Assembly: GCA_040390125.1 (NCBI GenBank)
Contig: JAZJYZ010000001.1
Coordinates: 506,396 to 570,395, forward strand
Source: Patescibacteria group bacterium
GTDB taxonomy: Bacteria > Patescibacteriota > Minisyncoccia > Phycocordibacterales > Phycocordibacteraceae
Length of the DNA: 64,000 nucleotides
Direction of reading: 5' to 3'
The translations under genes were made by a program, and so were the position numbers. The stretch's first letter is position 1. Each line of letters starts with the position of its first letter. Of this stretch, positions 12,498-33,689 are shown one piece after another. The notes beneath the pieces are model-generated. The model was not told the DNA's origin, did no database searches, and saw nothing but the letters and a program-made list of their open reading frames with translations.

Positions 12498-13016
12498 ATG
12501 AAAAACCTATATAAGCGATTGTTTGATTATAGTGAGAATATTCAATTTGAATGCGTTGTTTCCATGGAAGAGGCATTAAAGCGATTAGCAGAAAAACTAC
12601 AAAAGCAGAGTGTCTTTATATTTTTAACTTCTACCGTATCGCATCCGTCGCTTATGGGGCAAATAACAAAAAATTCAGTTAAATTGCACAGAGTCGTTCC
12701 TTTTCTGGGCAATATTTATAAGCCAATTTTTTACGGAAGATTTAATAACAAAAATGGAAAAATTGTATTAGAAGGAATGTTTACAATGAGTCCCATCGCC
12801 AAGATCTCAACCCTCCTTTTCTTAACAATCTTTGTGGCTATTGAAATAATTATGCTTCCAGTAGGATTTGCTCAAGCTGATCCATCTGCAATATTATTAC
12901 TATTTGCGATTCCTATTATTGCCTTTCTTCCAGTCTGTTTCCTATTTCTTGGTAGGCGTTTAGCTAGGAATGACATGGAATGGATTTCAAATCACATCAA
13001 ATCAACACTAGCCTGA
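12498..13016 (+). CDS. Candidate cognate immunity protein (C-terminal 2-TM membrane protein)
   Basis: Starts 2 nt after toxin stop; hydrophobic helices ...ISTLLFLTIFVAIEIIMLPVGF... and ...ILLLFAIPIIAFLPVCFLFLG...; position immediately 3' of RHS tip. Confidence 0.5.
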   Translation: MKNLYKRLFDYSENIQFECVVSMEEALKRLAEKLQKQSVFIFLTSTVSHPSLMGQITKNSVKLHRVVPFLGNIYKPIFYGRFNNKNGKIVLEGMFTMSPIAKISTLLFLTIFVAIEIIMLPVGFAQADPSAILLLFAIPIIAFLPVCFLFLGRRLARNDMEWISNHIKSTLA

Positions 13017-13046
13017 AATAGTGTTCTTCTCTAACTACAATTAATC

Positions 13047-13442
13047 ATGAACTTCGGTGACGTAAAAACTATACTTGAATCTCTCACCGAGTTGGTTAAA
13101 AAAACTGCTACTCTCGATCTGCAAGAAAAGATTGTGAATTTGCGTGAGTACATTATTTCTATTAAGGACGAAAATATTACATTGAAAGAAGAGAATCAGG
13201 CTCTTAAACTCGAACTTTCTACAGAGCATGATTTTTTTCTTAAGAACGGTTTGTATTGGAGGGAGGGCGATCAAGTGCCATTTTGTCAAAAATGCTTGGA
13301 TGGTTCCAAAAAACGCATTCATCTCCAACCTTGGAATACCACCGGAGGATGGAAGTGTTTTGAATGTACTAGCTATTACAACCCTCAGCGTGGTGCGGAT
13401 GTTCATGTCTTCAGACCGAATAGACAAAATCCTGCTCGTTAG
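13047..13442 (+). CDS. Hypothetical protein with coiled-coil N-terminus and C-terminal CxxC...CxxC zinc-ribbon-like motif
   Basis: ...PFCQKCLDGSKKRIHLQPWNTTGGWKCFECTSYY...; no family recognised. Confidence 0.4.
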   Translation: MNFGDVKTILESLTELVKKTATLDLQEKIVNLREYIISIKDENITLKEENQALKLELSTEHDFFLKNGLYWREGDQVPFCQKCLDGSKKRIHLQPWNTTGGWKCFECTSYYNPQRGADVHVFRPNRQNPAR

Positions 13443-13525
13443 ATGAGTATTTCTTTTCATAGACACCGTCAGTATCGCCACAATCGGGTAAGTCCAGTTA
13501 ATTCAGCGAAGACTTTTGGTAACTC

Positions 13526-14932: not shown

Positions 14933-15387
14933 AATATAAACCTAGATTAATTTGGAGTGGATCCATTGCAAGTGGACTCTTATTAATAATCTTGCTGGCT
15001 CTTAATGGCTTTCTTAGTAATCCGCTTTTATGGACAGATAAATTCGCCCTCTTACCCTTTGTTTTACTAATATTTATGGGTCTACACGTTCTTTTTGGAA
15101 TGTATGTTTTCTTTGATGAATCAAAATTATGCCGCGTGGATTTCTTTATATGGAGGAGTTGCATCGCTATCGCGGATATCCAAAGTGTTGTATACCAATC
15201 CTCCTTAATCTTTGGAGGACCAAATAAAACCGTTTCTGTTTTTGATGCAAAAGGGAAGAAGGTATTTATGGAGAGCATGCCTTTTGGCAAAGAAATGCAG
15301 AAGGATTTAATCGATAAACTTATACGCCTCAACCCCTCTATTAGATTGAATGAAGATGCCGAGGCACTTCTTCGTGAAAATAAATGA
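14929..15387 (+). CDS. Candidate immunity protein for orphan RHS tip (multi-TM membrane protein)
   Basis: ATGA overlap with orphan toxin stop; TM helices ...IASGLLLIILLALNGFL... and ...ALLPFVLLIFMGLHVLFGMYVFF... Confidence 0.5.
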   Translation: MKYKPRLIWSGSIASGLLLIILLALNGFLSNPLLWTDKFALLPFVLLIFMGLHVLFGMYVFFDESKLCRVDFFIWRSCIAIADIQSVVYQSSLIFGGPNKTVSVFDAKGKKVFMESMPFGKEMQKDLIDKLIRLNPSIRLNEDAEALLRENK

Positions 15388-15630
15388 TTCATACACACCG
15401 ACGATACCGCCACGGCAGTACAAATCCAGCTCAAATCTTGCAGATTGTTGGTAAGTCACTCTGTATCTCATCAGGTTGCTTTACAAGGAAGCTGGGCATT
15501 GTAGAGTTTGTTTACTATGGCAGATAACATAGACCTAAAAAGGACATCCAGCTTTACTTTAGAGGCAACAGATATAGTCATTCGCGAAGAAAATGGGGTC
15601 AGCCACCATTTTCAGTGATACGATACCTCC

Positions 15631-16308
15631 ATGCCTCGCATCCAGCGTACCGACATTGGTAATCATGTCTATCATGTTTTAAACCGTGCCAACGCACGAG
15701 CACAGATTTTCGACTCCAAAGAGGACTACCTTCTCTTCGAGAGCATTCTAGAAGAGGCAGTAGAGAAGTTTGATATGCGTCTTCTTGCCTATTGCCTCAT
15801 GCCTAACCATTGGCATTTCGTGCTCTATCCCCGAGCCGATGGTGACCTCGCCGCCTTCATGGGTTGGCTCACCAATACACATACCAGACGGTGGCATGTA
15901 GCCAAGAAAACCATCGGTCACGGACATCTCTACCAAGGACGATATAAATCATTTCTCTGTCAGACTGATTCGCACTTCTTGACTCTAGTGAGATACGTTG
16001 AGAGGAATGCCAAAAAAGCAAACCTCGTGCGGCGGGCGGAAAATTGGAAGTGGTCCAGTGTGTGGAGAAGAGAGGAGGGAACACTAGAACAAAAGAAAAT
16101 CCTTACGGAATGGCCGGTATCAATGCCACCACACTATCTTGCTCTACTCAATGAACCGCAAACTAAAGCAGAAGAAGATGCTCTGGAGCGGTCAATTGCA
16201 AAAAATATACCATTCGGGAGTGAGAAATGGCGTGATGTTATTATTAAAAAGCATGGTCTTGAACAAACACTCCACTCGGTCGGAAGACCTCGAAAGAATG
16301 GTGGCTGA
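15631..16308 (+). CDS. REP-associated tyrosine transposase / IS200-IS605-like Y1 HUH transposase (TnpA_REP family)
   Basis: ...HVYHVLNRANARAQIF...LLAYCLMPNHWHFVLYP... (HUH motif H-W-H + hydrophobic) and downstream Tyr-containing region ...RYVERNAKKANL...; 225 aa. Confidence 0.75.
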   Translation: MPRIQRTDIGNHVYHVLNRANARAQIFDSKEDYLLFESILEEAVEKFDMRLLAYCLMPNHWHFVLYPRADGDLAAFMGWLTNTHTRRWHVAKKTIGHGHLYQGRYKSFLCQTDSHFLTLVRYVERNAKKANLVRRAENWKWSSVWRREEGTLEQKKILTEWPVSMPPHYLALLNEPQTKAEEDALERSIAKNIPFGSEKWRDVIIKKHGLEQTLHSVGRPRKNGG

Positions 16309-16516
16309 CCCCATTTCTGACCCCATTTCCCAAGAAAGCTCGCAAAGCAGCTCAATGGAGCAAAAGATAGCTTCGGCATATTTTGGAGAATCTTACGATG
16401 TTGAAGGTGACTTCGCAGAGTTTTCCTCTGTCTGGCATCCCCCTCAACCCTCATTTCCTGAAAAAATTTCCTTCGCACTTCCACTCGCTGAAGTCAGTAG
16501 TAATGCTTGACAAATA

Positions 16517-17005
16517 TTGTATTTAGTGATGATATGTAAAGCCACTATGACTAACTTCGATTCAAGACCTGAGGGAAGATTTATGCCAGCATTTCGTGAA
16601 CCTACTTCACAAGGGCCTGCTCCTGAGCAATTTGTCCCACGAATGGAAACACTAACCAGGAGACCCGAAGGACAGGTACCTTCTATGACAAATGTCAGAA
16701 GGCTTAATTTGCCCCCTGGAGATTTCGGTCCTCAAGGCTATCGTTACGAACCAGCAACTCACTCTAAGCATTACTCCTTACCACGACGGTTAGGGTACTT
16801 GGTTGCTTCAATGATTGGTGCAGCTATGGGGCTTGCAGGTCTTATTGGCGGACCAGCTCTGGCGTATTTTGCTTTAACAACAGCCCCCTTTGTTAGCTTC
16901 ATCTTTGCGGTTCCCGTAGCTGCAGGGCTTGCCCTTGGTGTGTTGGGTGCCGCTCTGTTAGTTGGTACTCGTGATGCATTTAAAGTTGCAGCAGGAAAGG
17001 ATTAG
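16517..17005 (+). CDS. Hypothetical membrane protein (Pro/Gly-rich N-terminus, two C-terminal TM helices)
   Basis: ...LGYLVASMIGAAMGLAGLIGGPALAYFALTTAPFVSFIFAVPVAAGLALGVLGAALLV...; followed by rho-independent terminator. Confidence 0.4.
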   Translation: MYLVMICKATMTNFDSRPEGRFMPAFREPTSQGPAPEQFVPRMETLTRRPEGQVPSMTNVRRLNLPPGDFGPQGYRYEPATHSKHYSLPRRLGYLVASMIGAAMGLAGLIGGPALAYFALTTAPFVSFIFAVPVAAGLALGVLGAALLVGTRDAFKVAAGKD

Positions 17006-17042
17006 ATAAGAATCTTTTTTCTGTACTATCTTATTCCTGAAC

Positions 17043-17071
17043 GCCGTTCACATCACGTGAACGGGTTTTTT
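17043..17071 (+). terminator. Rho-independent terminator (CCGTTCACATCACGTGAACGG + GTTTTTT)
   Basis: Perfect 8-bp stem hairpin followed by T-run directly after 16517..17005. Confidence 0.7.
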
Positions 17072-17441
17072 ACATTGTGTTTTTGGAAATGGCGTCAGCC
17101 ACCATATTTTATGATTAACACCCTCACCATTTCTGCCCCCACTTTCTGAATTGTAGTTAATTATCCTGGGTATACTGAAACCCAGTATGATGTTGGAAAA
17201 TTTAAACAAATTAAAAATTGGAGAGCAATCTCAAATACTTAATTTTCAAAATTCGAAGCCTACCAAAAACGAACTCCATGTATCGTACGGAGGAAGTATT
17301 ACATCAAAAGAGATGTTGCAAATTGAAGGCGGTCTTGCTGTAGGAGTTCTTATGCTCCTCTTTATACATTTTTTAAAAAGAGATTCTCCAAAAAATAAAT
17401 AAATTCATTGACGTTTCCTAAAATTTAGGGCATATTATAAA

Positions 17442-17999
17442 GTGATGAACACTGAAGACGATGTTGTTATTGAGCCAGATGACGAAAGCTTGGAGGGGGA
17501 AGGGGCGTCAGCTACTAAACTTTCAGCTCAAATAAAAAAAATAAAAAGTGAGCTTGAAAAAGCCCTAAAGGAACGTCAAGAGTATTTAGATGGCTGGCAG
17601 AGAGCAAAAGCTGATTACGTAAATATCCGTAAGCGTGCTGAAGATGAACGCCAGGCACTGGTTAAGGGTGCTTCTAGGGGACTTGTTGAGGCACTACTGC
17701 CGGCTCTCGACAGCTTTGATCACGCTATGAGCTCAGTTGAGGGTGGTGGGGCCTGGATAGAGGGTATAAAAAACACGCACAGCCAACTCATGAAGGCACT
17801 CGAAGCAGAAGATGTGAGTGCGTTTGACCCTTTGGGGGAAATTTTTGACCCGAATGTACATGAGCCGGTTGAGACAGTTGCAGTAACAAGTGAGGTAGAG
17901 GATAATACAGTAACTAAAGTCTACCAAAAAGGGTACACCCTTCATGGTACGATTATCCGCCCAGCACGTGTTGCGGTTGGACATTATCAAAATAGTTGA
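17442..17999 (+). CDS. grpE: nucleotide exchange factor GrpE
   Basis: ...YLDGWQRAKADYVNIRKRAEDERQ...; C-terminal beta-domain ...VTKVYQKGYTLHGTIIRPARVAVG; precedes dnaK. Confidence 0.9.
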   Translation: MMNTEDDVVIEPDDESLEGEGASATKLSAQIKKIKSELEKALKERQEYLDGWQRAKADYVNIRKRAEDERQALVKGASRGLVEALLPALDSFDHAMSSVEGGGAWIEGIKNTHSQLMKALEAEDVSAFDPLGEIFDPNVHEPVETVAVTSEVEDNTVTKVYQKGYTLHGTIIRPARVAVGHYQNS

Positions 18000-21312: not shown

Positions 21313-21819
21313 ATGGATATACTTACGGATTTGGACATAGGAGGGAATTTTCATAAAGCTCTAGATTTTCTTGTGGGCTTTGGTAGTGACTTTTTTGCCT
21401 TTATAGTGCTGGCAGGTCTGGTTGCGGTTTTTGCATTTTATTTTGGACGTAATCGTTTGATGCCTCTCATTGCCGCTTTGTATGCGGCTGTTCCTTTATA
21501 CCTATTTTTTCCATTTCAAACTCCACTTCTCCAAGACCCGTACATAGCGATAGCCCTCTATCTACTCTTCGTCTTTCTTGCTCTGGTGGCTTTTTCGGGT
21601 CTCTCATTTTTTATGGCAAGTGCTCCAAGGTCATTGCTCCGAGTTGGTGCCACTTCTATTTTGGTTGCAGGGGCACTACTCGCAATAGGCATCCATGTTC
21701 TTCCTCTTGAACAAATTTATACACTAACCGCTCCAACAAAAGCTCTTTTTGCTTCAAACCAGGCCTTCTTTTGGTGGTTAGTAGCTCCATTAGCTGGGCT
21801 CTTTTTCTTAGAGCGATAA
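21313..21819 (+). CDS. Hypothetical polytopic membrane protein (4-5 TM), first gene of the 21.3-27.2 kb cluster
   Basis: Hydrophobic segments throughout; 9-nt gap to next gene. Confidence 0.5.
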   Translation: MDILTDLDIGGNFHKALDFLVGFGSDFFAFIVLAGLVAVFAFYFGRNRLMPLIAALYAAVPLYLFFPFQTPLLQDPYIAIALYLLFVFLALVAFSGLSFFMASAPRSLLRVGATSILVAGALLAIGIHVLPLEQIYTLTAPTKALFASNQAFFWWLVAPLAGLFFLER

Positions 21820-21828
21820 TAACCATTT

Positions 21829-23412
21829 ATGTCTCAAACAAAAAAACAAAAAGAGAATATTTTAATACTTGACGGTAACAACCTAACACCTGAGGCTGTG
21901 CATGCCGTAGCACATAACCAAGAGATTTCTGTAGCTCCATCGCCGGACGCCATGAAGCGTGTACGGGAAAGCAACGCCTTTCTTAAGGGAGAAGTTGGGA
22001 AAAAAGTTATTTACGGGATTACCACAGGCTTTGGGCCAATGGCTTCTCACATCATTGGGAAAAATCAGCTCGTAGAACTGCAATACAATCTCATTCGGAG
22101 TCACGCCGTGGGAGCAGGGGATCCTATACCGCAAGCTTTCGTTGTCGCTGCGATGGTAGACAGGGCAAATACTTTTCTCAAAGGATATTCAGGTGTTTCA
22201 GAGGGTGTAATCGAGCAGATCATAGGCTTCATCAATCACCGCATCATCCCCATCGTCCCTGAACACGGAGCAGTGGGCACGAGCGGGGATTTGGTACAAC
22301 TCGCACATATTGCATTAGCACTCATTGGAGAAGGGGAAGTGTTCTATAAGGGCGTGCGTATGTCGTCGAGCGTCGCTTTGAAAAAAGTAAAAATGAAAGC
22401 ACTCAAGCTCGGACCCAAAGAAGGTCTCGCACTCATCAACGGCACTTCCGTGATGACGGGTATCGCTGCACTTCTCATCGTCGAAGCAAGGCATCTTGTT
22501 GACCTTGCCACTCGCTCAGGTGCTATCGCTTTGGAGCTCGTAAATGGTCTGAATGACGCCTTCTCGGATATGCTCCACTCTGTGCGTCCACACAAAGGAC
22601 AGAGAGAAATTGCGAAACGCCTCCGAGAACTCCTCAAGGATTCTGAACTCATGACCGACCGAAAGATGCTCCAGTCGAAAGTGAACGTCATCGATAACGT
22701 CTATGTCACGCCCGAGAGCATACAAGAGGTGTATTCGTTCCGGTGCATACCACAGATACTCGGACCCATACTCGATATATCAGAAAAGGTATACGGAGAA
22801 GTGTCCGTCGAGCTCAATTCAGTAACTGACAACCCAATAATTGACCTCAAGGAGAAGATATTCCTCCATGGTGGCAACTTCCACGGAGACTATATCGCAA
22901 CTGCGGTAGATCAAATGAAGATAGGTATCGTAAAGATGACCATCCTCTCGGAGAGACGTGTGAATTTTTTCCTAAATAGAAACGTTAATCAAACATTCCC
23001 ACCGTTTTTGAACCTAGCCCAGCCCGGCCTCACGCTTGCACTCCAGGGACTCCAATTTGTAGCAACTTCGACGACAGCTCAGAGCCAATCACTCGCATAC
23101 CCGCACTCACTTCATTCGATATCCACGAACGCAGACAACCAAGACGTCGTTTCCATGGGCACCGATGCGGCACTTTTAGCGTATAAAACCATAGAAAACG
23201 CCTACATAGTGCTTGCGATAGAGCTCATCACGCTCGCACAAGCTGTAGACTTGATACACGCCGCAGAGAAGCTCTCTCCCGAATCGAAAGAGCTCTACAA
23301 GTTCATTCGTTCTCACTTTGCCGTGGTACAAGAAGACCGCTCGTTCACAACAGAATTGAATGTCCTCAAGGAAAAGATTCAAAAAGGCAAAGGTTTCGAG
23401 GCTTCGAAATAG
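21829..23412 (+). CDS. MIO-dependent aromatic amino acid ammonia-lyase / aminomutase family (HAL/PAL/TAL/PAM-like)
   Basis: ...YGITTGFGPMAS...RSHAVGAGDPIP...; MIO-forming triad region ...GAVGTSGDLVQLAHIA... (Thr-Ser-Gly variant of Ala-Ser-Gly); 527 aa typical length. Confidence 0.8.
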   Translation: MSQTKKQKENILILDGNNLTPEAVHAVAHNQEISVAPSPDAMKRVRESNAFLKGEVGKKVIYGITTGFGPMASHIIGKNQLVELQYNLIRSHAVGAGDPIPQAFVVAAMVDRANTFLKGYSGVSEGVIEQIIGFINHRIIPIVPEHGAVGTSGDLVQLAHIALALIGEGEVFYKGVRMSSSVALKKVKMKALKLGPKEGLALINGTSVMTGIAALLIVEARHLVDLATRSGAIALELVNGLNDAFSDMLHSVRPHKGQREIAKRLRELLKDSELMTDRKMLQSKVNVIDNVYVTPESIQEVYSFRCIPQILGPILDISEKVYGEVSVELNSVTDNPIIDLKEKIFLHGGNFHGDYIATAVDQMKIGIVKMTILSERRVNFFLNRNVNQTFPPFLNLAQPGLTLALQGLQFVATSTTAQSQSLAYPHSLHSISTNADNQDVVSMGTDAALLAYKTIENAYIVLAIELITLAQAVDLIHAAEKLSPESKELYKFIRSHFAVVQEDRSFTTELNVLKEKIQKGKGFEASK

Positions 23413-23414
23413 CT

Positions 23415-24968
23415 ATGTCCCGATCGGTACAACGAATCACTACAACGAAGAGTGCCACAGGTATCGTTACAGATATTTTTGGTAAAGGTCTCACTAAAGA
23501 TTCTCTTAGACGCCTCACGCACGAGAAGTCAGAAGAGTGGTGGGTGAAGGAAGGGGAGAAGCGCGCTCTGGCTCTTTTCCACGAAGCTGCAAAGCGAGTC
23601 CCTGCATATGCGTCGTTCCTCAAGAAAAAAGGGGTCAAAGCTTCTGCGGTCCGCAGCATGACCGATTTCTCACAGGTTCCCGAAACTGACAAGAAAAACT
23701 ATATAACCAGATATCCTTTGGAGGATCGCTGTTGGGACGGGACACTCAAAGGAAGCACGTTAGTTGCTATGAGCTCGGGCACGACAGGTTCCCCGACTCT
23801 CTGGCCACGGGGGATGGAACAAGAAGCAGAGGCTGCCCTGGTCCACGAACATCTCTTCCTTGATTTGTATGAAGTAAAAAGATATAGAACGTTGGCAATT
23901 ATTGCATTCCCTATGGGGGTGTACGTGTCCGGCATCGCAACTACGCTCCCATCGTTTCTCACGGCATGCAAACATCCAAACCTTACCTTACTGACAGCGG
24001 GGAATAACCGCGATAGCATTTTGAAGACTCTAACTCAGCTCCAGAAGGATTTCGATCAGGTCATTCTCATCGGTCATCCTTTCTTCATCAAAGACGTGAT
24101 AGAGACGGGGAAAAAACACGGGATCCGGTGGGGAAAGACAAAGCTCCGAACGATGTTTTGCAGTGAGGGGTTCAGTGAAGAATGGCGAGACTACATTTCT
24201 TCGCTCGTGCTGAAATCAGCATCGCATAGAGATTTCTTCAACACCTATGGATCTTCGGAGCTACTTTTGATGGCCTATGAATCTCCTGAAACGGTGCTCT
24301 TACGGCGTGCAAGCGAGAAAGACAGCGAGCTCCGAAACAAACTTTTCTCAAAGCCAGTGACCCCGTTTCTTTTTCAATACAACCCGAGCCTTCGCTATAT
24401 CGAGAGCAATTCAAAAGGGGAACTTCTCTTTACCGCACGAAGCGGCGTGCCTCTAGTGCGTTTTAACTTACATGATTCAGGCGAACTCATATCGCACTCT
24501 TTCGTGAATGGAGCTCTTAAAGAAACAGGAATATCTCTTACAGGAGAGATACGGAAAGCTGGCTGGAAGAGATGGAACCTTCCCTTCGTGGCACTCTACG
24601 GACGGAGCGATCATGCACTAGTTTTTTATGCGGCGAACATATATCCAGAGCACATACATGGTGCACTTAATCACGCACCTTTTCTGAAGAAGATAACCGG
24701 TAAATTCAGTATGGAGAAGAACTATACGCCCTCTATGGATCAGAGGCTCACTGTCCATATAGAACTGCAAGAGAAAGAGTCTGGTACTGCTTCCTTGTGC
24801 TCCGAATTGAGAAAAAACATCGTTCAAAATTTAGAAGCAGTAAATATGGAATACCTCTTCCTCCGTAATAATCTTGAGAAAGACTTGGTGCCTGAAGTCG
24901 TCCTTCATCCGTATCAAGATGACACCTATTTCAAACAAGGAATCAAACCACGTTATATTATCAAGTAG
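23415..24968 (+). CDS. Adenylate-forming enzyme of the phenylacetate-CoA ligase (PaaK)/coenzyme F390 synthetase/CapK family
   Basis: ...KNYITRYPLEDRCWDGTLKGSTLVAMSSGTTGSPTLWP... (AMP-binding SSGTTG-PT motif of PaaK family); 3-nt gap from lyase gene. Confidence 0.7.
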   Translation: MSRSVQRITTTKSATGIVTDIFGKGLTKDSLRRLTHEKSEEWWVKEGEKRALALFHEAAKRVPAYASFLKKKGVKASAVRSMTDFSQVPETDKKNYITRYPLEDRCWDGTLKGSTLVAMSSGTTGSPTLWPRGMEQEAEAALVHEHLFLDLYEVKRYRTLAIIAFPMGVYVSGIATTLPSFLTACKHPNLTLLTAGNNRDSILKTLTQLQKDFDQVILIGHPFFIKDVIETGKKHGIRWGKTKLRTMFCSEGFSEEWRDYISSLVLKSASHRDFFNTYGSSELLLMAYESPETVLLRRASEKDSELRNKLFSKPVTPFLFQYNPSLRYIESNSKGELLFTARSGVPLVRFNLHDSGELISHSFVNGALKETGISLTGEIRKAGWKRWNLPFVALYGRSDHALVFYAANIYPEHIHGALNHAPFLKKITGKFSMEKNYTPSMDQRLTVHIELQEKESGTASLCSELRKNIVQNLEAVNMEYLFLRNNLEKDLVPEVVLHPYQDDTYFKQGIKPRYIIK

Positions 24969-24973
24969 CATCC

Positions 24974-27217
24974 ATGGAACCAGAATTGAATCTAAAGCCT
25001 ACCCCTAAACGTGCGTCCAAGCCGGTGTTCTTTGACCTGTCCGAAAGTAGTAACCGCACTGCCCTGCAAGAGCTTTTTGCCGCAGGAGACATTATTCATG
25101 TGATTGACGAATATGAATCACAGCTCAAAGAGCTTTTTACGATCAGTAATCCTTCTTTGGCACAATCTTCAGAATTGCCAGCATCTTTTTCTACATATTT
25201 TCAATCTCTCTCAAAAGTTAAACCTCCTTCAGAGCAGGGCACATGGGTTTACTTCCCTTGGCTTTCAATGATTTCTCACATTCTTAGTGACGCTGAATTT
25301 CAGAAAGTAAGAACGGCAAGGAACAAAAACCTAATAACAGAAGAAGAGCAGAAAAAGCTATATGCAACCCGTGTTGCTATTGCGGGTCTTTCTGTGGGAA
25401 ACAGTGTGGCACTTGCTATCGTTCTTCAAGGAGGAGCTCGGCGGATAAAGCTTGCTGACCATGACACTCTAGAGCTTTCCAATTTGAACCGCATTCGTGC
25501 CGGAGTCGAATCGCTGGGGTTAACGAAAGTGGAAATTACCGCCCGTCAGATATATCTTCTTGATCCTTACGCTGAAGTAGAACTCTTCCTCGAGGGTATT
25601 ACCGAAGAAAACATCGAATTATTTTTCAATGACGTGGATATCGTTATAGATGAGATAGATAGCTTACCAATGAAGTACCGTATACGCGAAGAAGCGAAGA
25701 AGCGAAATCTTCCGGTTCTGATGGCAGCCGACAATGCTGATTCTGGAATTATTGATATTGAGCGATATGACCTCGACCCTTCGACCACATTCTTTAATGG
25801 ACGTATTCGAGAAACAAGGCAGGAAATACTGCATCTGGATAAAAAAGAAACCGGTGCTCTGATCGCTGACTTTGTGGGCTTAGAAAATCATAGCGAAAAG
25901 ATGTTGGGTTCACTGTCGGCGTTGATAGGGTCGACCTTAGTCTCTTGGCCACAGCTTGGTAGCACTGCTCTTATGAACGGCTCAGCGCTGGCGTATGTGG
26001 TTCGGCAGATCGCACGCGGAGTGCCACTCCCAAGCGGTCGCACTAAGATTCCGCTAGATAATCTATTTCATATTGGAGAAGGTGATGCAGATTCTCCCAC
26101 AGCTTTGGAGAAAGCACCCGATGCTACCTGGGGAGATGAGTTAGATTTCATACTGGAGGCCGGTCGGTTTGCTCCTTCGGCTGATAATACGCAACCGTGG
26201 AGGGTTGTCATAACAGATAATAAAACATTTTACCTCCACCACGTACCACAGCGAGATATGACCCCTTACGACAATGGTCAAAGAACTTCTTATATGAGTC
26301 ATGGTGCTTTCATAGAGAATGTCCGTATAGCAGCTGCAAAGTTAGGAAAATCGATTCAGTACGCACTTGAAGAGCCAACAGCACTGAATGATTACTGCGT
26401 CGCCCGGCTTACAATACAAGATAAAAAAGACGCCTTGAATGCGAGAGATGCTGAGCTGTATGGTGCCGTATTTTCCAGAGCCACAAACAGGAAAACATAC
26501 CGGAAAGAACCACTCTCAGACATTACTAATCAACGGATCATGCTCGCACAAAAAGAGATAGGGTGGGGAGAAGTTCGCATTATCGATTGCCCGAACCGTG
26601 AAATCGCACGGGCTGCAGCACTTTCAGGGCAGATTATGTTTCAAAATCCGGATGTCCATGAAGGGCTCTTCGCTCATATTCGATGGACACCCAAAGAAGC
26701 GCGTGATACTCAGGACGGGTTCCTTATAGATACCTTCGAGCTTCCATTCCCTGCGAAACTCATCTTTAAGCTCGCCCAATCTGCGGAGCGTTTGGAGTTC
26801 TTGAACCGATCCATAAAGCTAGCGGAAACTATCCCTACAGGGATGCAGGATCTCTACGAGCATTCAGGTTCATATATCGCTTTAGTCTCCGAACATAAAA
26901 CTTTTGAAGACTATGTAATGTTAGGTAGACTCATGGAGCGCATCTGGCTTACGGCTACTTTGGAAGGAGTCGCCCTCCAGCCTATCGGTGCGATGTGTTT
27001 CTTCAAAGACATGCTGGATGCAAAGACGACTCAGGCTCTTTCCAAGGAAGATATTCTTCTTACGGAAAAAGCACATGCCGTTTTTGAAAAAGAGTTTGAT
27101 CTCAAGGGCAAACATCTTCTTTTTCTATTTCGGGCAGGCTACGGCCCTAAACCATCGGCACGTACTGAAAGACTCTCTCTTTCACGCATCGTAAAAATTT
27201 CAGGAATCGAGGAATAA
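24974..27217 (+). CDS. Fusion protein: N-terminal E1-like/ThiF-MoeB adenylyltransferase fold + C-terminal FMN nitroreductase-like (SagB/McbC-type dehydrogenase-like) domain
   Basis: ThiF Rossmann: ...RVAIAGLSVGNSVALAIVLQGGARRIKLADHDTLELSNLNRI...; nitroreductase: ...FAPSADNTQPWRVVITDNKTFYLH...; architecture as in Rv1355c/MoeY-like and E1-SagB fusions. Confidence 0.75.
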   Translation: MEPELNLKPTPKRASKPVFFDLSESSNRTALQELFAAGDIIHVIDEYESQLKELFTISNPSLAQSSELPASFSTYFQSLSKVKPPSEQGTWVYFPWLSMISHILSDAEFQKVRTARNKNLITEEEQKKLYATRVAIAGLSVGNSVALAIVLQGGARRIKLADHDTLELSNLNRIRAGVESLGLTKVEITARQIYLLDPYAEVELFLEGITEENIELFFNDVDIVIDEIDSLPMKYRIREEAKKRNLPVLMAADNADSGIIDIERYDLDPSTTFFNGRIRETRQEILHLDKKETGALIADFVGLENHSEKMLGSLSALIGSTLVSWPQLGSTALMNGSALAYVVRQIARGVPLPSGRTKIPLDNLFHIGEGDADSPTALEKAPDATWGDELDFILEAGRFAPSADNTQPWRVVITDNKTFYLHHVPQRDMTPYDNGQRTSYMSHGAFIENVRIAAAKLGKSIQYALEEPTALNDYCVARLTIQDKKDALNARDAELYGAVFSRATNRKTYRKEPLSDITNQRIMLAQKEIGWGEVRIIDCPNREIARAAALSGQIMFQNPDVHEGLFAHIRWTPKEARDTQDGFLIDTFELPFPAKLIFKLAQSAERLEFLNRSIKLAETIPTGMQDLYEHSGSYIALVSEHKTFEDYVMLGRLMERIWLTATLEGVALQPIGAMCFFKDMLDAKTTQALSKEDILLTEKAHAVFEKEFDLKGKHLLFLFRAGYGPKPSARTERLSLSRIVKISGIEE

Positions 27218-27240: not shown

Positions 27241-28899
27241 ATGGGTCTTGATTTTTTAAATGTTGATCTGTTGGCGCTGGGCATAAGCATCGCAGCAATA
27301 GGTATTCTGGGTTTCGTAGTGTTCCTTCAAAACCCAAAAAGTGCGACTCATTTCGCCTTTCTTTTTACAGCCGTGATGACCGCCTGCTACGGCGTAGCCA
27401 ACTATGTAAATTACCAAGTCTCTGATCCTGTAGCGATATTATGGTTAATACGCATAGTTATTTTTTTTGCAGTATGGCATGCATTTTCTTTTTTCCATCT
27501 TTTTTTCGTCTTTCCAGAAATACGAGTACGCTATCCGGTATGGTATCGGCTCGCCCTTATCCCGGCAGTCACTGCAGTTTCAATCCTAACACTTACACCC
27601 TTTGTTTTTACAAAACTTTCTAAAATCGGTGGTATCGGCGAAGTTTCAACGCCCGAAATAGGGATAGCTGCCCCAGTCTTCTTTGCTACGATTGCATTTC
27701 TTATATTAGCCGGTATCTATCTTTTATTAAAAAGAACTTTCCGAACAAACCCCCAAGAGCGTAAGCGTTTTATATACGTGCTTATCGGGAGCGTCCTGTC
27801 TTTTGGGCTTTTGCTGATTTTGAATCTAATTTTTCCCATACTCTTTAATTCCGTCGTCTTTGTTCCGTTTGCAGGGCTCACCTTTTTGCCCTTCATCTTC
27901 TTCACTGGTTATGCAGTCATTCGATATAAACTTTTGGATGTAAAAGTGTTGAGTACGGAAATCGTTGCTTTGGCACTTTCTATTGTTGCTTTTGTGCAAA
28001 TTATCTTTGCCCAAACTTTGCTCGAAAAAGTATTCACCTCTGGAGTATTCCTTCTCGTTTTACTTTTCAGCTTTATGCTTATAAAAGGAGTAACTAATGA
28101 AGTAAAGCAACGTGAAGAAATTGAACATCTTGCCGATAACCTGAGAGTCGCTAACGACAAACTTAAAGAACTCGACAGACTTAAATCACAATTTCTCTCC
28201 ATGGCTTCGCATGACCTTCGTGCACCCTTAACTATCATTCGTAACTTTATTTCACTGCTTTTGGATGGCTCTTACGGGGTTTTGGCACCGGCAGGAAAGG
28301 AAGGTTTACAGCAAGTTTTTGATAGGGCAACAGACATGGCGAAATCAGTGGAAACCTATCTTGACGTGTCACGCATAGAGCAGGGAAGAATGAAGTATGA
28401 CTTTATTGATATTGAGCTCTTGCCATTAGTCAAAAATGCAGTCACTGCATTTACGCCGAACGCTGAAAAAAAAGGTTTGAAACTCACCGCTACGTATGAC
28501 AGTGCACTTGAGGGAGCCAAAGCAAAAATAGATGTATCAAAAATGAACGAAGTGTTGAATAACTTGCTCGACAACACCATCAAGTACACACCGACAGGCA
28601 CAATGAATTTAAGTCTAAAAAGAATAGGTGATGCTTCATCGGGTCCGAAGGGACCATCAGTGGTTCGCCTTACTCTGAAAGACACAGGAGTGGGTATGAG
28701 TGCAGATACATTGAAAAACCTTTTTCAACTCTTCAGGCCGGGTGAAGATTCTAAGCGTATAAATCCTGCTTCAACGGGCGTAGGACTCTTTGTCACTAAA
28801 GCCCACGTAGAGGCACATAAAGGAAAAGTTTGGGCTGAATCTGAAGGGGTAGGGAAGGGCTCCACGTTCATTATGGAGCTTCCTCTTTTGACGGCTTAA
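27241..28899 (+). CDS. Sensor histidine kinase (multi-TM sensor + HisKA + HATPase_c), no adjacent response regulator
   Basis: ~6 N-terminal TM helices; H-box ...LKSQFLSMASHDLRAPLT...; N/G boxes ...LLDNTIKYTPTGT..., ...DTGVGMSAD..., ...GVGLFVTKAHVEAHKGKVWAESEGVGKGSTF... Confidence 0.85.
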   Translation: MGLDFLNVDLLALGISIAAIGILGFVVFLQNPKSATHFAFLFTAVMTACYGVANYVNYQVSDPVAILWLIRIVIFFAVWHAFSFFHLFFVFPEIRVRYPVWYRLALIPAVTAVSILTLTPFVFTKLSKIGGIGEVSTPEIGIAAPVFFATIAFLILAGIYLLLKRTFRTNPQERKRFIYVLIGSVLSFGLLLILNLIFPILFNSVVFVPFAGLTFLPFIFFTGYAVIRYKLLDVKVLSTEIVALALSIVAFVQIIFAQTLLEKVFTSGVFLLVLLFSFMLIKGVTNEVKQREEIEHLADNLRVANDKLKELDRLKSQFLSMASHDLRAPLTIIRNFISLLLDGSYGVLAPAGKEGLQQVFDRATDMAKSVETYLDVSRIEQGRMKYDFIDIELLPLVKNAVTAFTPNAEKKGLKLTATYDSALEGAKAKIDVSKMNEVLNNLLDNTIKYTPTGTMNLSLKRIGDASSGPKGPSVVRLTLKDTGVGMSADTLKNLFQLFRPGEDSKRINPASTGVGLFVTKAHVEAHKGKVWAESEGVGKGSTFIMELPLLTA

Positions 28900-29686
28900 C
28901 TGACGATTTCTCGATATTTAGTCGCTTAGCCTCTTCGAAGGCGAGATCGAATATCTTTTTCATTGCATCTGCAATAGTTGGACTGTCAATATGGATTGAA
29001 ATGAGTTCATCGTGCAACATAAAACCGACAGTGTTATCGAAAACTGCAAAGTCAGACATGAAGTGCCATTTCTCAGGTGAAATAAGTTGTGCATCATCAA
29101 TATGAGTTACATTTTTCCTTAGATAGTCCGCCTGTTCGGTATAAGGATGAATCCCATGCATTGCGATACCTAACTCCATGCGCCGTTTTACATACGAAGG
29201 AAGATACTCCGGAAGTGTATTTTGAATCTTGTCAGTTGACGAAACAATTCGAATGACCTTCTCCTTCATTTCGAGAGTTTCTTCGAAAGAATTCACAAAA
29301 CCCGCCTTTCCTTCAAAGATACGAACATGGGGTCGTTTCTTATTGCCTCCATAGAGTAATTTAAGGTCAGGAAGTAAATGTTCAATTGATTTCTGAATCT
29401 GTAGTTTTTCATTAGCGGTCTGTTGAGCGATCCGAGCGAGTTGTTCTGGCGGTACAACAACATATTTTTTAATTTTTTCTCCACCGGAAATACTAGTAAG
29501 CCCACGTGCTTGCAAAGATTCAAGGACAACATAGGTAGAACTGCGATTTAGTTCGGCTTTATCAGCAACTTCATGTGCAGTTGCAACTTCAAGCTCTAAG
29601 AGAGCAAGGTATGCCCTCGCCTCTTTTTCTGAGAGTCCAAAATTGACCAATTCTTCTGTAAACATGTTGTTGGTAGTGGTAAACAC
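28871..29686 (-). CDS. TrmB-family transcriptional regulator
   Basis: N-terminal wHTH ...LVNFGLSEKEARAYLALLELEVATAHEVADKAELNRSSTYVVLESLQARGL...; 271 aa with C-terminal effector-like domain. Confidence 0.75.
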   Translation of the reverse strand: MFTTTNNMFTEELVNFGLSEKEARAYLALLELEVATAHEVADKAELNRSSTYVVLESLQARGLTSISGGEKIKKYVVVPPEQLARIAQQTANEKLQIQKSIEHLLPDLKLLYGGNKKRPHVRIFEGKAGFVNSFEETLEMKEKVIRIVSSTDKIQNTLPEYLPSYVKRRMELGIAMHGIHPYTEQADYLRKNVTHIDDAQLISPEKWHFMSDFAVFDNTVGFMLHDELISIHIDSPTIADAMKKIFDLAFEEAKRLNIEKSSVKPSKEEAP

Positions 29687-30143: not shown

Positions 30144-31394
30144 TTGCTAATGGTCAATGTAAAAATTATGTCAAGATTCCAATCTTCGGCAAAGAAATTG
30201 TCAAATTTATTAATGAACAGGCAACTAGCCTGCGATCAAGTGAGTTTTTTTGTTGACGGTAAAGTGTTTGAAGAGCTATCACCTCTCGATGTGGCGAAGC
30301 ATAACTGTTTACACCTGATTAATCTTTTATCAAAATTCGATACAGCCACCCTTGAGAAGTCTTCACAGAAAATTCTGCAAATAGAAGTTGTGCCGGATTT
30401 GCTCGTGTATGCATTGCAATTAGCTCATGTTTTTAATCACGATCCCATAGAAAATTTGCTAAAAGAACACGGCATAGTCATTGATGAAACAATCCAACTA
30501 ACTAACCTAAACGAATTAAGGGATAAAATTTTAGAAAGTAAAAAGACCACATTGAAAGTTGAGAGTATTCAAAAGACAGTTATTCAGGCTGCATCATACC
30601 TTGCTAGAATTTGTGACAAGAATGACCACGGGACTATTATGTCAACAAATGAAGTTTCAACCAACGTTACTGTTCCATTGTTAATGGCCTCAATAGAGCT
30701 TTCAGATTTGCTTAAGGTAGATTTATATACTGCCTATAAAGAACGCATAGAACAGATTGTGGCAAAGTATGGTAATGTGCGGAATTTGTTAGATAAAAGA
30801 GCCAATTCATTTGAATGGTGTGGGCCAGCTAAATTACCTAGAGAAGACGGTGAGTGGAAACTTTACGGATTCAAAGACATAATTTTTGGAAAAACTGTTG
30901 AAGGGGTAGCGTTAGTTTTGGGGGAAGTAGAGAAGCAAGAGAATGTTTTAATAAGACTACATTCTCAATGTATTACAAGTGAAGTGTTTCGATCGTTAAA
31001 ATGCGACTGCAAAGACCAGTTGGATACAGCGGTCGAGTTAATAGTTGAAAAAGGACAGGGTGTGATCGTGTATGTACTTGAGGAGGGGCGGGGTATTGGA
31101 ATATATAACAAGGTGGCAGCGTATGCAGAACAAGATACCGGAAAGGACACCATTGAGGCCAATATATCGATTGGGCAACCTGTGGAGGGTAGAACTTTTA
31201 AACTTGAAGGAAAAATCCTACGACACTTAAACCCAAAATCCATTATATTAATAACCAATAATCCAGATAAAATTAAAGCTATGGAAAAGATTGGTGTGGC
31301 AATAAAAAAAATATTTGAGACACGGACACCTAGTGGTCCTCATAGTAGGGGATATATTCATACAAAAAGGGAAAAGTTTGGTCACGGGATCTAA
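30144..31394 (+). CDS. GTP cyclohydrolase II (RibA)-like catalytic domain (aa ~235-416) fused to an uncharacterised ~235-aa N-terminal domain
   Basis: ...IRLHSQCITSEVFRSLKCDCKDQLDTAVELIVEKGQGVIVYVLEEGRGIGIYNKVAAYAEQDTGKDTIEAN...EGRTF...ILITNNPDKIKAMEKIGV... aligns with RibA ...[23 protein letters not shown]...[38 protein letters not shown]...ERDF...LLTNNPKKVEIL...; zinc Cys triad, Tyr105- and Arg128-equivalents present. Confidence 0.75.
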   Translation: MLMVNVKIMSRFQSSAKKLSNLLMNRQLACDQVSFFVDGKVFEELSPLDVAKHNCLHLINLLSKFDTATLEKSSQKILQIEVVPDLLVYALQLAHVFNHDPIENLLKEHGIVIDETIQLTNLNELRDKILESKKTTLKVESIQKTVIQAASYLARICDKNDHGTIMSTNEVSTNVTVPLLMASIELSDLLKVDLYTAYKERIEQIVAKYGNVRNLLDKRANSFEWCGPAKLPREDGEWKLYGFKDIIFGKTVEGVALVLGEVEKQENVLIRLHSQCITSEVFRSLKCDCKDQLDTAVELIVEKGQGVIVYVLEEGRGIGIYNKVAAYAEQDTGKDTIEANISIGQPVEGRTFKLEGKILRHLNPKSIILITNNPDKIKAMEKIGVAIKKIFETRTPSGPHSRGYIHTKREKFGHGI

Positions 31395-31646: not shown

Positions 31647-33689
31647 TCATAGCTTTCTAATGACACCTTTCCCAGCATCCACTTCCACCATATCACCATT
31701 CTTAAGAATTTTAGTTGCTATATTTGTGCCGACAATACAAGGTTTTTTTAATTCACGAGCAGTAATCGCAGCGTGGGATAAAAGTCCCCCAGAATCAGTA
31801 ACAAAAGCAGCAGCTTTTTGCATGAGTGGCAGAAAATCTGGACGTGTCATACCGGTTACCAGTATCTCACCATCCGCAAAGTCGGTCTCGTTTGGATCAA
31901 GGACCACCCTAACGTGACCGCGCACCACCCCTTTGAAAACAGAAAGTCCCTTGAGTTCAGAACCATTATCATCCTGACTGAGAAGTCTCTGTAAGAGTTG
32001 GAAACGCTCGCCTGTAAGAAATTTACTCTCTCCGTTTTCATTAAATAAAATTGCTACACCATTAATGCGCTCTCTTAGAATCTCTTTATTGGGACGTACT
32101 CCTTTTTCAAGTGCATCTATGTCGTTACTTGCTAACACAAAAACCTCTTCTTCAGTAAGTTCAGGAAAAAAATGTGAGGCAATTTTTCTAAAAAGGTAGT
32201 CTGCTTCTGGATACACTCCTTCCAAGTAAGCACGAACTTTACTGAAAGTATCCAAATACTTTTCTATGATTTTAGAAGGCAAAAAATCTGCCGCCCTTTT
32301 CAAGGTGAAATTTGCTGGCACGTGTGCGTATATGGCATTCGCGACCGCACGGTAATCTTCAATGGAATAGTTTTTTTTCTTTTTCAAATCAGTAAATAAT
32401 GAAAGCGCAGCATCGGTGCGCTCATACAATTCTTGGCACCAATGTTCCACTATATTTTCGTCCTCTATGATTCGTTCAGCATATGTTCTACATATAGTGT
32501 TCATTTCGTTTGCGGGAACGAAATTTGAACTAACATTTTTATCACACACCACAATATGGTGTGTGAATTTCATGCCTGAATATTTTGACAATTCTTTTGT
32601 ATACATTCTTCCGTAGAGCGATGGAAATAAGAGGCTCATATTGGTATTTGACCAATTTTGAGTCCATATTTTTTGTTCAAATAGGTCTTGAAGTTGCAAA
32701 TCCCGATTATCACTTACCTTAATAATGGACTCTGATGTATCAAGTGTCGTTATTGGGCGACTTTGGGTTATGAAAAATTTCTCATTTTCTAAAGCCCATT
32801 CAATATCAACTGGAAATGCATAATGTTTTTCTATACCGAGAACGATTTCTGAAAGTTCTAGAATCTGAGTATCGGAAAGTTTTTGTTTTTTTGTTTTTTC
32901 AAGAGCGTTAACCCACTGATTCCCACTTTTCCCCCCATCCACACGAATAAGTGAACGGGTTTGTTCTGATATATTTTTGTCAAGAATTGCTTTCGGCTCT
33001 TTCGTGACCACATAAGAATCAGGTGTAATTTTTCCCGAAACTATAGCTTCACCCAAACCGAAACCTGCCTCAATAATCATCTGATTCCTATCCTCTGTCA
33101 CTGGATGCACAGAAAACGCAATGCCGGAAACTTCGCTCTGTACCATTTTCTGAATCACAACAGCAACGGAAATCTTTGAAGTGTGCAATCCTTTTTGAAA
33201 GCGGTAGAAAATAGCACGTGGAGTAAAAAGCGATGCCCAACATCGGCGTATATTATCAAGTAGTGCCTCCTCTGTAGTATTCAGAAACGTGTCGAGCTGT
33301 CCTGCCCATGCGGCGGATGCGCTGTCTTCGGCAGTTGCTGACGAGCGCACTGCGACAAATTCTGCATCAAGCTTTTTAAAGCTTTTCTCAATCTCTCTAG
33401 CAATATCTTCCGGTATTTCTTTTGCAAGAATGAGCGTCTGTATCTGTTCAGAGGCACGTTCTACTGTTTCCATATTTTCAACCTGAACGGTCTTGAGGAT
33501 AGCACTTATTTCAATATTGAGATCCACAACCTCAATGAAATGCTCAAAAGCGGAAGCGAGAATTACAAAACCCGACGGGACCGAAATCCCTGCCTGAGTC
33601 ATTTCCCCAAGCGATGCTCCCTTTCCTCCAGCTACGGAAGTGTCGTTTTTAGAAATTTGCGAGAATAATTTTATCCATTTCATTATCAA
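31647..33689 (-). CDS. PEP-utilising enzyme family dikinase with rifampin-phosphotransferase-like domain order (N-terminal PPDK-type ATP-grasp, central domain, C-terminal mobile phosphohistidine domain; no PEP-binding TIM barrel)
   Basis: N-term ...DTSVAGGKGASLGEMTQAGISVPSGFVI...; extreme C-term ...GEILVTGMTRPDFLPLMQKAAAFVTDSGGLLSHAAITARELKKPCIVGT... (His domain ends the protein). Confidence 0.8.
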   Translation of the reverse strand: MIMKWIKLFSQISKNDTSVAGGKGASLGEMTQAGISVPSGFVILASAFEHFIEVVDLNIEISAILKTVQVENMETVERASEQIQTLILAKEIPEDIAREIEKSFKKLDAEFVAVRSSATAEDSASAAWAGQLDTFLNTTEEALLDNIRRCWASLFTPRAIFYRFQKGLHTSKISVAVVIQKMVQSEVSGIAFSVHPVTEDRNQMIIEAGFGLGEAIVSGKITPDSYVVTKEPKAILDKNISEQTRSLIRVDGGKSGNQWVNALEKTKKQKLSDTQILELSEIVLGIEKHYAFPVDIEWALENEKFFITQSRPITTLDTSESIIKVSDNRDLQLQDLFEQKIWTQNWSNTNMSLLFPSLYGRMYTKELSKYSGMKFTHHIVVCDKNVSSNFVPANEMNTICRTYAERIIEDENIVEHWCQELYERTDAALSLFTDLKKKKNYSIEDYRAVANAIYAHVPANFTLKRAADFLPSKIIEKYLDTFSKVRAYLEGVYPEADYLFRKIASHFFPELTEEEVFVLASNDIDALEKGVRPNKEILRERINGVAILFNENGESKFLTGERFQLLQRLLSQDDNGSELKGLSVFKGVVRGHVRVVLDPNETDFADGEILVTGMTRPDFLPLMQKAAAFVTDSGGLLSHAAITARELKKPCIVGTNIATKILKNGDMVEVDAGKGVIRKL

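Follow-up and report, generated by a model that had tools for sequence, protein, structure and literature searches.

In the oxazolone pathways described so far, an N-acyl amino acid is made from acyl-coenzyme A (CoA) by an N-acyltransferase that resembles FeeM and acyl-homoserine lactone (AHL) synthases, and the gene of this enzyme adjoins that of an E1-like (ThiF) enzyme joined to a flavin mononucleotide (FMN)-dependent nitroreductase (NR). Rv1355c, now named TrzS, converts N-acyl-Trp to N-acyl tryptazolone in vitro by ATP-dependent cyclisation and then O2/FMN-dependent desaturation (PMC12856293). OxzB of Pseudoalteromonas rubra and the separate TyzB and TyzC of M. tuberculosis perform the same chemistry on N-acyl-Tyr (bioRxiv 10.1101/2020.06.11.147165; PMC10404671). 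Here, we describe a gene cluster that encodes a related E1-NR enzyme in a Patescibacteria group bacterium, a member of the Candidate Phyla Radiation (CPR). It lies in a 64,000-nucleotide stretch (assembly GCA_040390125.1, contig JAZJYZ010000001.1, positions 506,396 to 570,395), which we refer to as the window. We confirmed four co-directional open reading frames (ORFs) on the + strand of this 64-kb window (21313-27217) that are separated by spacers of 9, 2 and 5 nt, and the gene of a seven-transmembrane (7TM) histidine kinase starts 23 nt past the last of them. The four encode a small membrane protein, an aromatic amino acid lyase dependent on a methylidene-imidazolone (MIO) group, a PaaK-fold adenylate-forming ligase and a 747-aa E1-NR fusion. 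The domain assignments that a first-pass annotation had given to these four genes were borne out by Pfam and NCBIfam searches and by an AlphaFold2 (AF2) fold, and the motifs that it quoted (GAVGTSGDL, SSGTTGSPT and PSADNTQPWR) were all found in the respective proteins.

We propose that the cluster is an operon, specific to CPR, for the synthesis of an oxazolone (azlactone), and that it is coupled to a membrane sensor kinase of its own; we put the probability of this reading at roughly 55%. It builds on the gene order, the protein families, the conserved catalytic residues, the synteny and the gene fusions that we observed. The MIO enzyme would deaminate Tyr or Phe to p-coumarate or cinnamate. 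The ligase would adenylate this acid and transfer it to the alpha-amino group of a second amino acid, probably an aromatic one by analogy with known FDO substrates, with neither CoA nor an acyltransferase involved. The ThiF/E1 domain would then adenylate the carboxylate of the N-acyl amino acid, the amide oxygen would close the ring to an oxazol-5(4H)-one, and the FMN-dependent NR domain would desaturate the C-alpha–C-beta bond. The resulting conjugated, electrophilic 2-styryl-4-arylidene-oxazolone would be built from two amino acids and two ATP. The 7TM histidine kinase would sense this product or a derivative of it, or control its production, with a stand-alone receiver and sometimes a receiver–PilB/GspE ATPase as its partners in relatives. 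We infer the cyclisation and desaturation steps from characterised homologues, and the MIO, ligase and kinase steps and the identity of the amino acids from gene context (family assignment, synteny and fusions).

The biosynthetic capacity of CPR bacteria is considered to be close to nil, and little is understood of the way in which they sense their partners. The cluster points to a five-gene small-molecule pathway conserved across many CPR lineages. If our reading is true, oxazolone natural products extend beyond Pseudomonadota and Actinomycetota, a PaaK-fold ligase offers a CoA-independent route to N-acyl amino acids, and the cluster provides the first concrete candidate for a synthase-receptor signalling pair in CPR. 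The literature searched contained no account of this CPR cluster, nor of the swap of the acyltransferase for a deaminase and a PaaK-fold ligase, the CPR-wide occurrence or the 7TM kinase partner.

Homology of the fusion protein to oxazolone synthetases

Judged by its sequence, the 747-aa E1-NR fusion is a full-length homologue of Rv1355c (TrzS), and it is the key to the cluster. Its N-terminal half (24974..26128, + strand) holds the ThiF/E1-like adenylating cyclase domain, with PF00899 at residues 117-252, and its C-terminal half (26129..27217, + strand) is an Acg/FDO-type domain of the FMN nitroreductase superfamily, with PF00881 and PF14512 from residue 388. The NCBIfam model NF005901 ('Rv1355c family') aligns over positions 8-720 of 722 with residues 12-742 of the protein (474.2 bits, E 6.7e-142). 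This full-length match agrees with the Rv1355c/MoeY-like architecture recognised in the first-pass annotation, and Rv1355c, no longer undescribed, is now known to be the oxazolone synthetase TrzS (PMC12856293). The fusion also aligns collinearly with members of the Rv1355c family from Mycobacterium and Rhodococcus, at 28-32% identity and 88-97% coverage. The nearest solved relatives in the PDB are TcdA for the E1 half and Acg (2ymv) for the NR half, and the Rv3131/Acg family model matches the NR domain with 132 bits. TcdA, too, belongs to the ThiF enzymes and generates an oxazolone, in its case on tRNA.

The E1 adenylation site (glycine-rich loop, SNLNR and Asp) is intact. Residues R116, N117, G138, S140, G142, D162 and D164 are conserved to at least 95% among 38 CPR sequences, as are N170, N172, R173, K185 and D229, and the set from G138 to D229 is common to the actinobacterial members. 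We mapped TrzS D217, R540 and Q651 via the M. goodii protein with an offset of ~17-18 residues, which makes their counterparts approximate. In this mapping, E1 residue D229 corresponds to D217, the Asp that contacts Mg and the alpha-phosphate, and the Gln of the 'VQP' motif (Q651) is kept, reading LQP in the fusion. In 36 CPR NR proteins, the motif APSxxNxQPW (400-409), R502, N505 and R506 (RxxNR) and R720 are conserved. From these homologies, the E1 domain is predicted to carry out the ATP-dependent cyclisation of an N-acyl amino acid to an oxazolone, and the NR domain to introduce the alpha,beta double bond into the oxazolone or the N-acyl amino acid. The earlier suggestion that an arylacrylate is itself handed to the E1 activator finds no support; the chemistry known for the homologue TrzS acts on N-acyl amino acids.

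The closest described system is TrzAS (Rv1356c-Rv1355c) of M. tuberculosis, M. smegmatis and Rhodococcus, which likewise has a ThiF-FDO fusion and represents the best-scoring NCBIfam family. Its hosts are Actinomycetota, whereas the present hosts are CPR. Genes for cyclic di-GMP (c-di-GMP) enzymes lie in the TrzAS neighbourhood and a histidine kinase gene lies in the CPR cluster, so that signalling genes accompany both. TrzA, the FeeM/AHL-synthase-like acyl-CoA:Trp N-acyltransferase, has no CPR counterpart; the MIO lyase and the PaaK-fold ligase stand in its place. The logic of OxzAB and TyzACB, in which an N-acyl aromatic amino acid is cyclised with ATP and desaturated with FMN, is the one that we propose for CPR, and both of their gene arrangements, fused E1 and NR (as in OxzB and TrzS) and adjacent genes (as in TyzB/TyzC), occur among the CPR loci. 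Unlike the acyl group in OxzAB and TyzACB, which comes from fatty acyl-CoA through an acyltransferase, that in CPR is predicted to be an arylacrylate (a 2-oxo acid in the sister cluster described below) installed by an adenylating ligase. Neither OxzAB nor TyzACB includes a sensor kinase, which belongs to the cluster in CPR alone. The E1-NR enzyme is of a known and recently characterised kind; what appears new, judged by the literature searched, is the acyltransferase swap, the spread across CPR and the 7TM kinase partner.

Two further observations concern the E1-NR family at large. The E1 half of the fusion is closer (36-38% identity) to stand-alone ThiF proteins of Streptomyces and Kitasatospora than to mycobacterial TrzS; on a plasmid of Streptomyces sp. 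NBC_01471, such a ThiF gene is followed by a GNAT gene, with no annotated NR gene nearby (L049:7917-9715). Plasmid pDV of Nitratidesulfovibrio vulgaris Hildenborough encodes a 989-aa FeeM-ThiF-nitroreductase triple fusion (L052:5074-8043) with PF21926 (FeeM) at its N-terminus (E 6e-45), so that the whole canonical oxazolone pathway is contained in one polypeptide. This gene sits among PEP-CTERM/exosortase genes.

Conserved synteny and the sister cluster

To place the cluster in its wider context, we used the ligase, which is the family marker of the cluster. A scan with the ligase alignment over one genome per GTDB species gave 47 loci, 46 of them non-redundant (L016 duplicates L015). All belong to Patescibacteria, namely Paceibacterota and Doudna-, Kaiser- and Lloydbacteria, with more distant representatives in Roizman- and Gottesmanbacteria. 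Loci were fetched by the ligase alone, and adjacency was counted only where a locus had enough flanking sequence. The MIO gene was adjacent in 42 of 45 loci, E1 in 37 of 40, NR in 32 of 39 and the 7TM kinase in 31 of 35, in the conserved order MIO-ligase-E1-NR-7TM histidine kinase. This arrangement is far beyond chance, and the genes that flank the related loci are housekeeping genes. The first-pass annotation had made its idea of a dedicated small-molecule pathway depend on linkage in relatives; synteny is strongly conserved, and the idea is supported. It had called the kinase an orphan, which does not hold: the kinase is a core member of the conserved cluster. One ligase homologue labelled 'Gammaproteobacteria' (P0038) has the same DnaJ-MIO-ligase-E1-NR-histidine kinase context, and we did not accept it as evidence for the family outside CPR.

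In 25 related loci, E1 and NR have a gene each, and the two are tightly coupled; in three loci, including the window, they are fused. The two ORFs share a reading frame in 12 of the 25 split loci (L003, L005, L018, L019, L020, L023, L026, L032, L040, L043, L044 and L045), mostly with a stop codon and a few codons between them. These same-frame pairs may be recent splits or fusions, or possibly reflect read-through. By chance, one-third of the pairs would share a frame, and 12 of 25 does not clearly exceed this. A class I S-adenosylmethionine (SAM) methyltransferase gene lies between NR and the kinase in six loci. One locus, L021, contains a second and divergent ligase-E1 pair (15212-17458; its ligase is 34% identical to that of the window) ~3 kb beyond the downstream end of its MIO-type cluster, with a radical SAM/SPASM gene (12773-13723) between the two, which may mean that two parallel systems occur in one genome.

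The membrane protein encoded by the first gene (168 aa; 21313..21819, + strand) is polytopic, as first described, and hydrophobic, with a grand average of hydropathy (GRAVY) of 1.18. Its place among the pathway genes did not stand: the family occurs only in the window and in five related loci (L003, L005, L009, L011 and L027), just upstream of the MIO gene, with dnaJ in front of it in every locus that extends so far. The protein is a lineage-specific accessory outside the conserved core, without a Pfam or NCBIfam match, and possibly serves export or immunity.

The top matches of the ligase family include several gene fusions: ligase-ThiF, ThiF-ligase, ELFV dehydrogenase-ligase and ELFV dehydrogenase-ligase-ThiF. 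Their genomic surroundings reveal a sister cluster on other CPR contigs (L055:6986-14237, L057:6962-14901, L060:4095-10155 and L061:2-6742), in which NR is followed by the dehydrogenase-ligase(-E1) gene, E1, an alpha/beta hydrolase and a HisKA_7TM kinase, and then by TrmB, a receiver or a bactofilin. All dehydrogenase-type loci contain the HisKA_7TM kinase, and none of the MIO-type loci contain the dehydrogenase or the hydrolase, the two that stand in for the MIO lyase in the sister cluster. The invariant core is thus ligase, E1, NR and 7TM kinase. Upstream of the ligase, the MIO lyase and the amino-acid dehydrogenase are interchangeable, and the property that they have in common is removal of the alpha-amino group; the MIO route would yield an arylacrylate and the dehydrogenase route a 2-oxo acid. 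As two unrelated deaminating enzymes replace each other and one of them, the dehydrogenase, is found fused to the ligase, we propose that the ligase acts on the acid left by deamination. The dehydrogenase-ligase-E1 fusions in turn suggest that the ligase product passes straight to the E1 cyclase, with no acyltransferase between them.

The ligase, the acid supply and rival chemistries

The ligase (517 aa; 23415..24968, + strand) is a divergent member of the PaaK fold. It has no Pfam match, and PaaK TIGR02155 scores only 55.4 bits against a cut-off of 646, so that the equivalog level is not reached. A profile of 20 homologues searched against the PDB gave significant E-values only for PaaK-family ligases, and the AF2 model built from 112 sequences (pLDDT 92.9) has the PaaK fold. 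In Foldseek, this model matched PaaK1 (2y27) with an E-value of 5e-24 and a TM-score of 0.77 on the target, followed by BT_0428; TM-scores of the PaaK-fold matches were 0.77-0.80 when normalised to the target. Further structural neighbours are NatL2 (6six/6siy), AjiA1, the 2-hydroxyisobutyryl-CoA ligase HCL and ClxA. The family is large, with 892 clusters (50% identity representatives) at E<=1e-30 in an exhaustive profile search.

Two of these PaaK-family neighbours, NatL2 and ClxA, activate an aromatic acid as its adenylate and couple it to another small molecule with no CoA involved (PMC7204872, PMC9400959), and an amide-forming role of the CPR ligase therefore has a precedent in the family. 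NatL2, AjiA1 and ClxA, which belong to benzoxazole pathways (PMC7204872, PMC9400959), have the PaaK fold in common with the CPR ligase and are among its top structural neighbours, whereas their identity to it is only 14-17% and their substrates are different. The CPR family is also ~80 residues longer than PaaK, and NatL2, perhaps unlike the CPR ligase, is locked against CoA. On gene context and this precedent, we predict that the ligase makes an N-acyl amino acid by coupling the deaminated acid straight to an amino acid, with no need for CoA.

The strongest competing explanation keeps the same oxazolone and changes the way in which it is reached. Here, the ligase would be an aryl-CoA ligase like FlxY or 4-coumarate-CoA ligase, and an unlinked N-acyltransferase would move the (hydroxy)cinnamoyl group from CoA to the amino acid. 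Every characterised oxazolone pathway does use acyl-CoA and an acyltransferase, and the significant sequence and fold relatives of the ligase include the CoA ligases PaaK, BT_0428 and HCL. There is also a weak match to the FlxY model of flexirubin biosynthesis (25 bits, cut-off 520), and FlxA, the tyrosine ammonia-lyase (TAL) that precedes FlxY in that pathway, comes nearest to the MIO enzyme. As in the CPR cluster, the flexirubin genes place a TAL-type gene before a PaaK-type ligase gene; the CPR cluster differs in having no polyketide or aryl-polyene genes, in the Thr-Ser-Gly triad of its MIO enzyme and in scoring below the equivalog cut-offs of both models. We nevertheless consider this route unlikely, since no acyltransferase is conserved in or beside the ~50 clusters of either type and the dehydrogenase-ligase-E1 triple fusions leave no room for an intermediate enzyme. 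Searches with the FeeM domain, a candidate TrzA homologue and GNAT (phmmer) returned nothing relevant in the 64-kb window or the 47 fetched loci, and cluster maps of the 46 related loci showed no recurrent acyltransferase. CPR genomes often lack CoA and fatty-acid biosynthesis, and a CoA-free azlactone route would suit such organisms.

The MIO enzyme (527 aa; 21829..23412, + strand), an aromatic amino acid ammonia-lyase or possibly an aminomutase, matches PF00221 (Lyase_aromatic) with 534.6 bits (cut-off 27.3, E 2.6e-160). GTSGD and the catalytic Tyr loop YG(I/V)(T/N)TGFG are conserved among its orthologues. The unusual Thr-Ser-Gly MIO triad, noticed already in the first-pass annotation, is present in 39 of 42 orthologues, and the three Microgenomates sequences have Ala-Ser-Gly. 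According to the first-pass annotation, the aminomutase AdmH may have the same triad; in PDB sequences, the MIO residues are masked. Among NCBIfam models, the FlxA tyrosine ammonia-lyase (NF053541) scores best (583 bits, cut-off 700), ahead of hutH (455), the AdmH-type mutase (414) and tyrosine aminomutase (TAM, 398), all of them under their cut-offs; for HutH TIGR01225 the score is 454.6 against 539, which is not reached. The enzyme has S/H (NLIRSHAVG) at the positions of RsTAL 89/90 and N/Q (DNQDVVSMG) at 435/436. Both motifs match the tyrosine aminomutase SgTAM, whereas the histidine ammonia-lyase (HAL) 7tqr reads QEDH at the second site. In the published selectivity rules for the lyase classes, HAL has Q/E or T/E at RsTAL 435/436 (HAL Glu414), and TAMs and TALs cannot be separated at these positions (PMC9321829). 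On active-site residues and score, we assign the MIO enzyme to the TAL/TAM type and rule out HAL. A plain HutH, the first-pass annotation's own alternative, was rejected because N-Q replaces the Q-E of HAL at RsTAL 435/436, FlxA-TAL is the best model and the synteny is conserved. The substrate could be Phe or Tyr, and the predicted role is the supply of cinnamate or p-coumarate.

The likeness to SgTAM in the S/H and N/Q residues and in DNQDVVSMG, together with the inseparability of TAMs and TALs at these positions (PMC9321829), also fits a 2,3-aminomutase, as would a Thr-Ser-Gly triad in the aminomutase AdmH. In that case, beta-Tyr or beta-Phe would be activated by the ligase and built into another heterocycle or a small peptide-like product. 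We give this little credence, as the FlxA TAL model beats the TAM and AdmH-type models by 170-185 bits, and as the dehydrogenase of the sister cluster removes the amine rather than moving it, which argues that deamination is the common role.

The substrates of most ThiF-like enzymes are proteins, peptides or tRNA (PMC12596934), and the first-pass annotation pointed to the E1-like and nitroreductase-fold partners in the azoline pathways of ribosomally synthesised and post-translationally modified peptides (RiPPs). A peptide or protein modification, RiPP-like or ubiquitin-like, would have the E1 act on a C-terminus, the NR work like SagB/McbC and the ligase add an arylacryloyl group. This is very improbable: YcaO, a precursor peptide, a beta-grasp protein, E2 and JAB are found in no cluster map, the NR is of the Acg/FDO type with no match of NR or E1 to SagB or ocin-ThiF models at E<=0.01, and the fusion is homologous over its full length to TrzS, an enzyme of small molecules. 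With no YcaO, precursor peptide or SagB-type match in the window cluster or the related loci, we rejected the reading as a thiazole/oxazole-modified microcin or other RiPP, and with it the azoline-RiPP/SagB idea of the first-pass annotation.

The sensor kinase and the wider locus

The kinase (552 aa; 27241..28899, + strand) has the domains PF16927 (HisKA_7TM, 34.1 bits), PF00512 (46.4 bits) and PF02518 (69.9 bits), all over their cut-offs. The kinase is catalytically intact, and conservation across 36 orthologues covers the phospho-acceptor H324 and the N and G boxes. The 7TM region matches the catalytic core in its degree of conservation, and its conserved features include an LTLTP motif and the intramembrane polar residues N54, R71 and K235. 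Only eight proteins were returned when homologues of the 7TM domain were sought, and its AF2 model is poor (pLDDT 65). A stand-alone receiver domain lies beside the cluster in 18 loci. In four (L013:15822-17573, L025, L037 and L044), the kinase and stand-alone receiver are followed by a receiver-T2SSE ATPase resembling PilB/GspE, a hint that the two-component system directs its output to pilus or secretion machinery and not to transcription. Methyltransferase and PilB homologues were searched for in the 64-kb window and were not found there.

The kinase may be the receptor that detects the product of the pathway, or it may regulate the pathway. The Vibrio quorum-sensing pairs CqsA/CqsS and LuxM/LuxN each consist of a synthase and a membrane-kinase receptor, and there too the synthase gene lies beside that of a polytopic membrane histidine kinase without a large periplasmic domain. 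The Vibrio pairs show no sequence relationship to the CPR proteins, whose receptor function is read from linkage only, and the output partners differ: LuxU/LuxO in Vibrio, stand-alone receivers and receiver-PilB-like ATPases in CPR. The authors who described the mycobacterial oxazolones noted their likeness to AHLs and the proximity of c-di-GMP genes (PMC12856293). The linked kinase supports the signalling hypothesis raised for those oxazolones and bears on their physiological role. We tentatively extend this to a wider, though doubtful, possibility, that the module of ligase, E1, NR and 7TM kinase serves widespread cell-cell or symbiont-host signalling in CPR. An autoinducer-like oxazolone, made from just two amino acids and ATP without lipid or CoA, would then act through the kinase on receivers and receiver-PilB proteins, and so on type IV pili and attachment, and the swap of the acid supplier would create signal 'dialects'.

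That a sensor kinase is linked to biosynthetic genes also recalls photoactive yellow protein (PYP), whose chromophore is provided by a TAL and a p-coumarate ligase encoded on either side of pyp genes. If TAL and ligase provided activated p-coumarate here, bound to the kinase or to another sensor, the result would be a light or redox receptor. Such an arrangement is scarcely credible: it leaves the conserved E1 and NR genes unexplained, the dehydrogenase-type clusters would not make p-coumarate, no PAS or PYP domain was found in the kinase in a Pfam scan, and many source samples are groundwater. Ordinary catabolism, in which a lyase degrades histidine or an aromatic amino acid beside functionally unrelated neighbours, can be set aside: hutH models do reach 455-465 bits, and a probable HAL is the annotation of the nearest solved chain, but the Q/E of HAL (QEDH) is replaced by N/Q (NQDV), no hutU or hutI lies nearby, and five-gene synteny with gene fusions extends across distant CPR classes.

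Several observations weigh against an oxazolone operon with its own receptor. The NF005901 score of the fusion (474.2) is just under the curated cut-off of 476, and the tentative counterpart of TrzS Arg540 is not conserved ('DRIRF' in mycobacteria versus 'GQIMF' here, in an approximate mapping). Characterised FDO domains use O2, and many of the source metagenome-assembled genomes come from groundwater of uncertain redox state. Identity of the ligase to PaaK enzymes of solved structure is no more than 15-17%, and CoA-ligase activity is possible. Sequence does not separate lyase from mutase activity in the MIO enzyme, which may be a mutase. One MIO enzyme of a 'Patescibacteria group bacterium', from a screen that required Ala-Ser-Gly, had only phenylalanine ammonia-lyase activity in vitro (PMC9321829); its orthology to the Thr-Ser-Gly group is uncertain, and the acid may be cinnamate rather than p-coumarate. 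Lastly, no receiver domain is found in the 64-kb window, and what ties the kinase, a candidate receptor, to the product is gene linkage alone.

Downstream of the kinase, a convergent gene (28871..29686, - strand) that overlaps the end of the kinase gene encodes a TrmB-family helix-turn-helix regulator (PF01978, E 8e-17). TrmB-type regulators are found beside the cluster in the window and in L007, L014 and L026, and also beside the dehydrogenase-type cluster (L057/L058). The regulator possibly controls the operon, although the association is loose. Promoter and terminator scans were at background level and uninformative on the limits of the operon, and scans of the 64-kb window for tRNA and Rfam families gave no match.

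The cluster is preceded in the window by the grpE-dnaK-dnaJ genes. Upstream of these lie, all on the + strand, a giant ORF of 2578 aa (4760-12496), a 468-aa protein with a weak RHS-repeat match (13526-14932) and an IS200-like (Y1 transposase) gene (15631-16308). On the other side, 1.2 kb downstream of the kinase stop codon and ~0.5 kb beyond the convergent TrmB gene, a gene on the + strand (30144-31394) encodes a GTP cyclohydrolase II (RibA) domain at residues 229-389, after an N-terminal extension of ~225 aa without assignment. A lone riboflavin-pathway enzyme near an FMN-dependent pathway is a curious find in a reduced genome; the gene is not kept beside the cluster in other loci. It is followed on the - strand (31647-33689) by the gene of a 680-aa protein with a PPDK_N ATP-grasp domain and a C-terminal mobile domain of phosphoenolpyruvate (PEP)-utilizing enzymes. 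A PEP/pyruvate-binding domain was not detected in this protein, and its architecture recalls phosphotransferases that act on small molecules.

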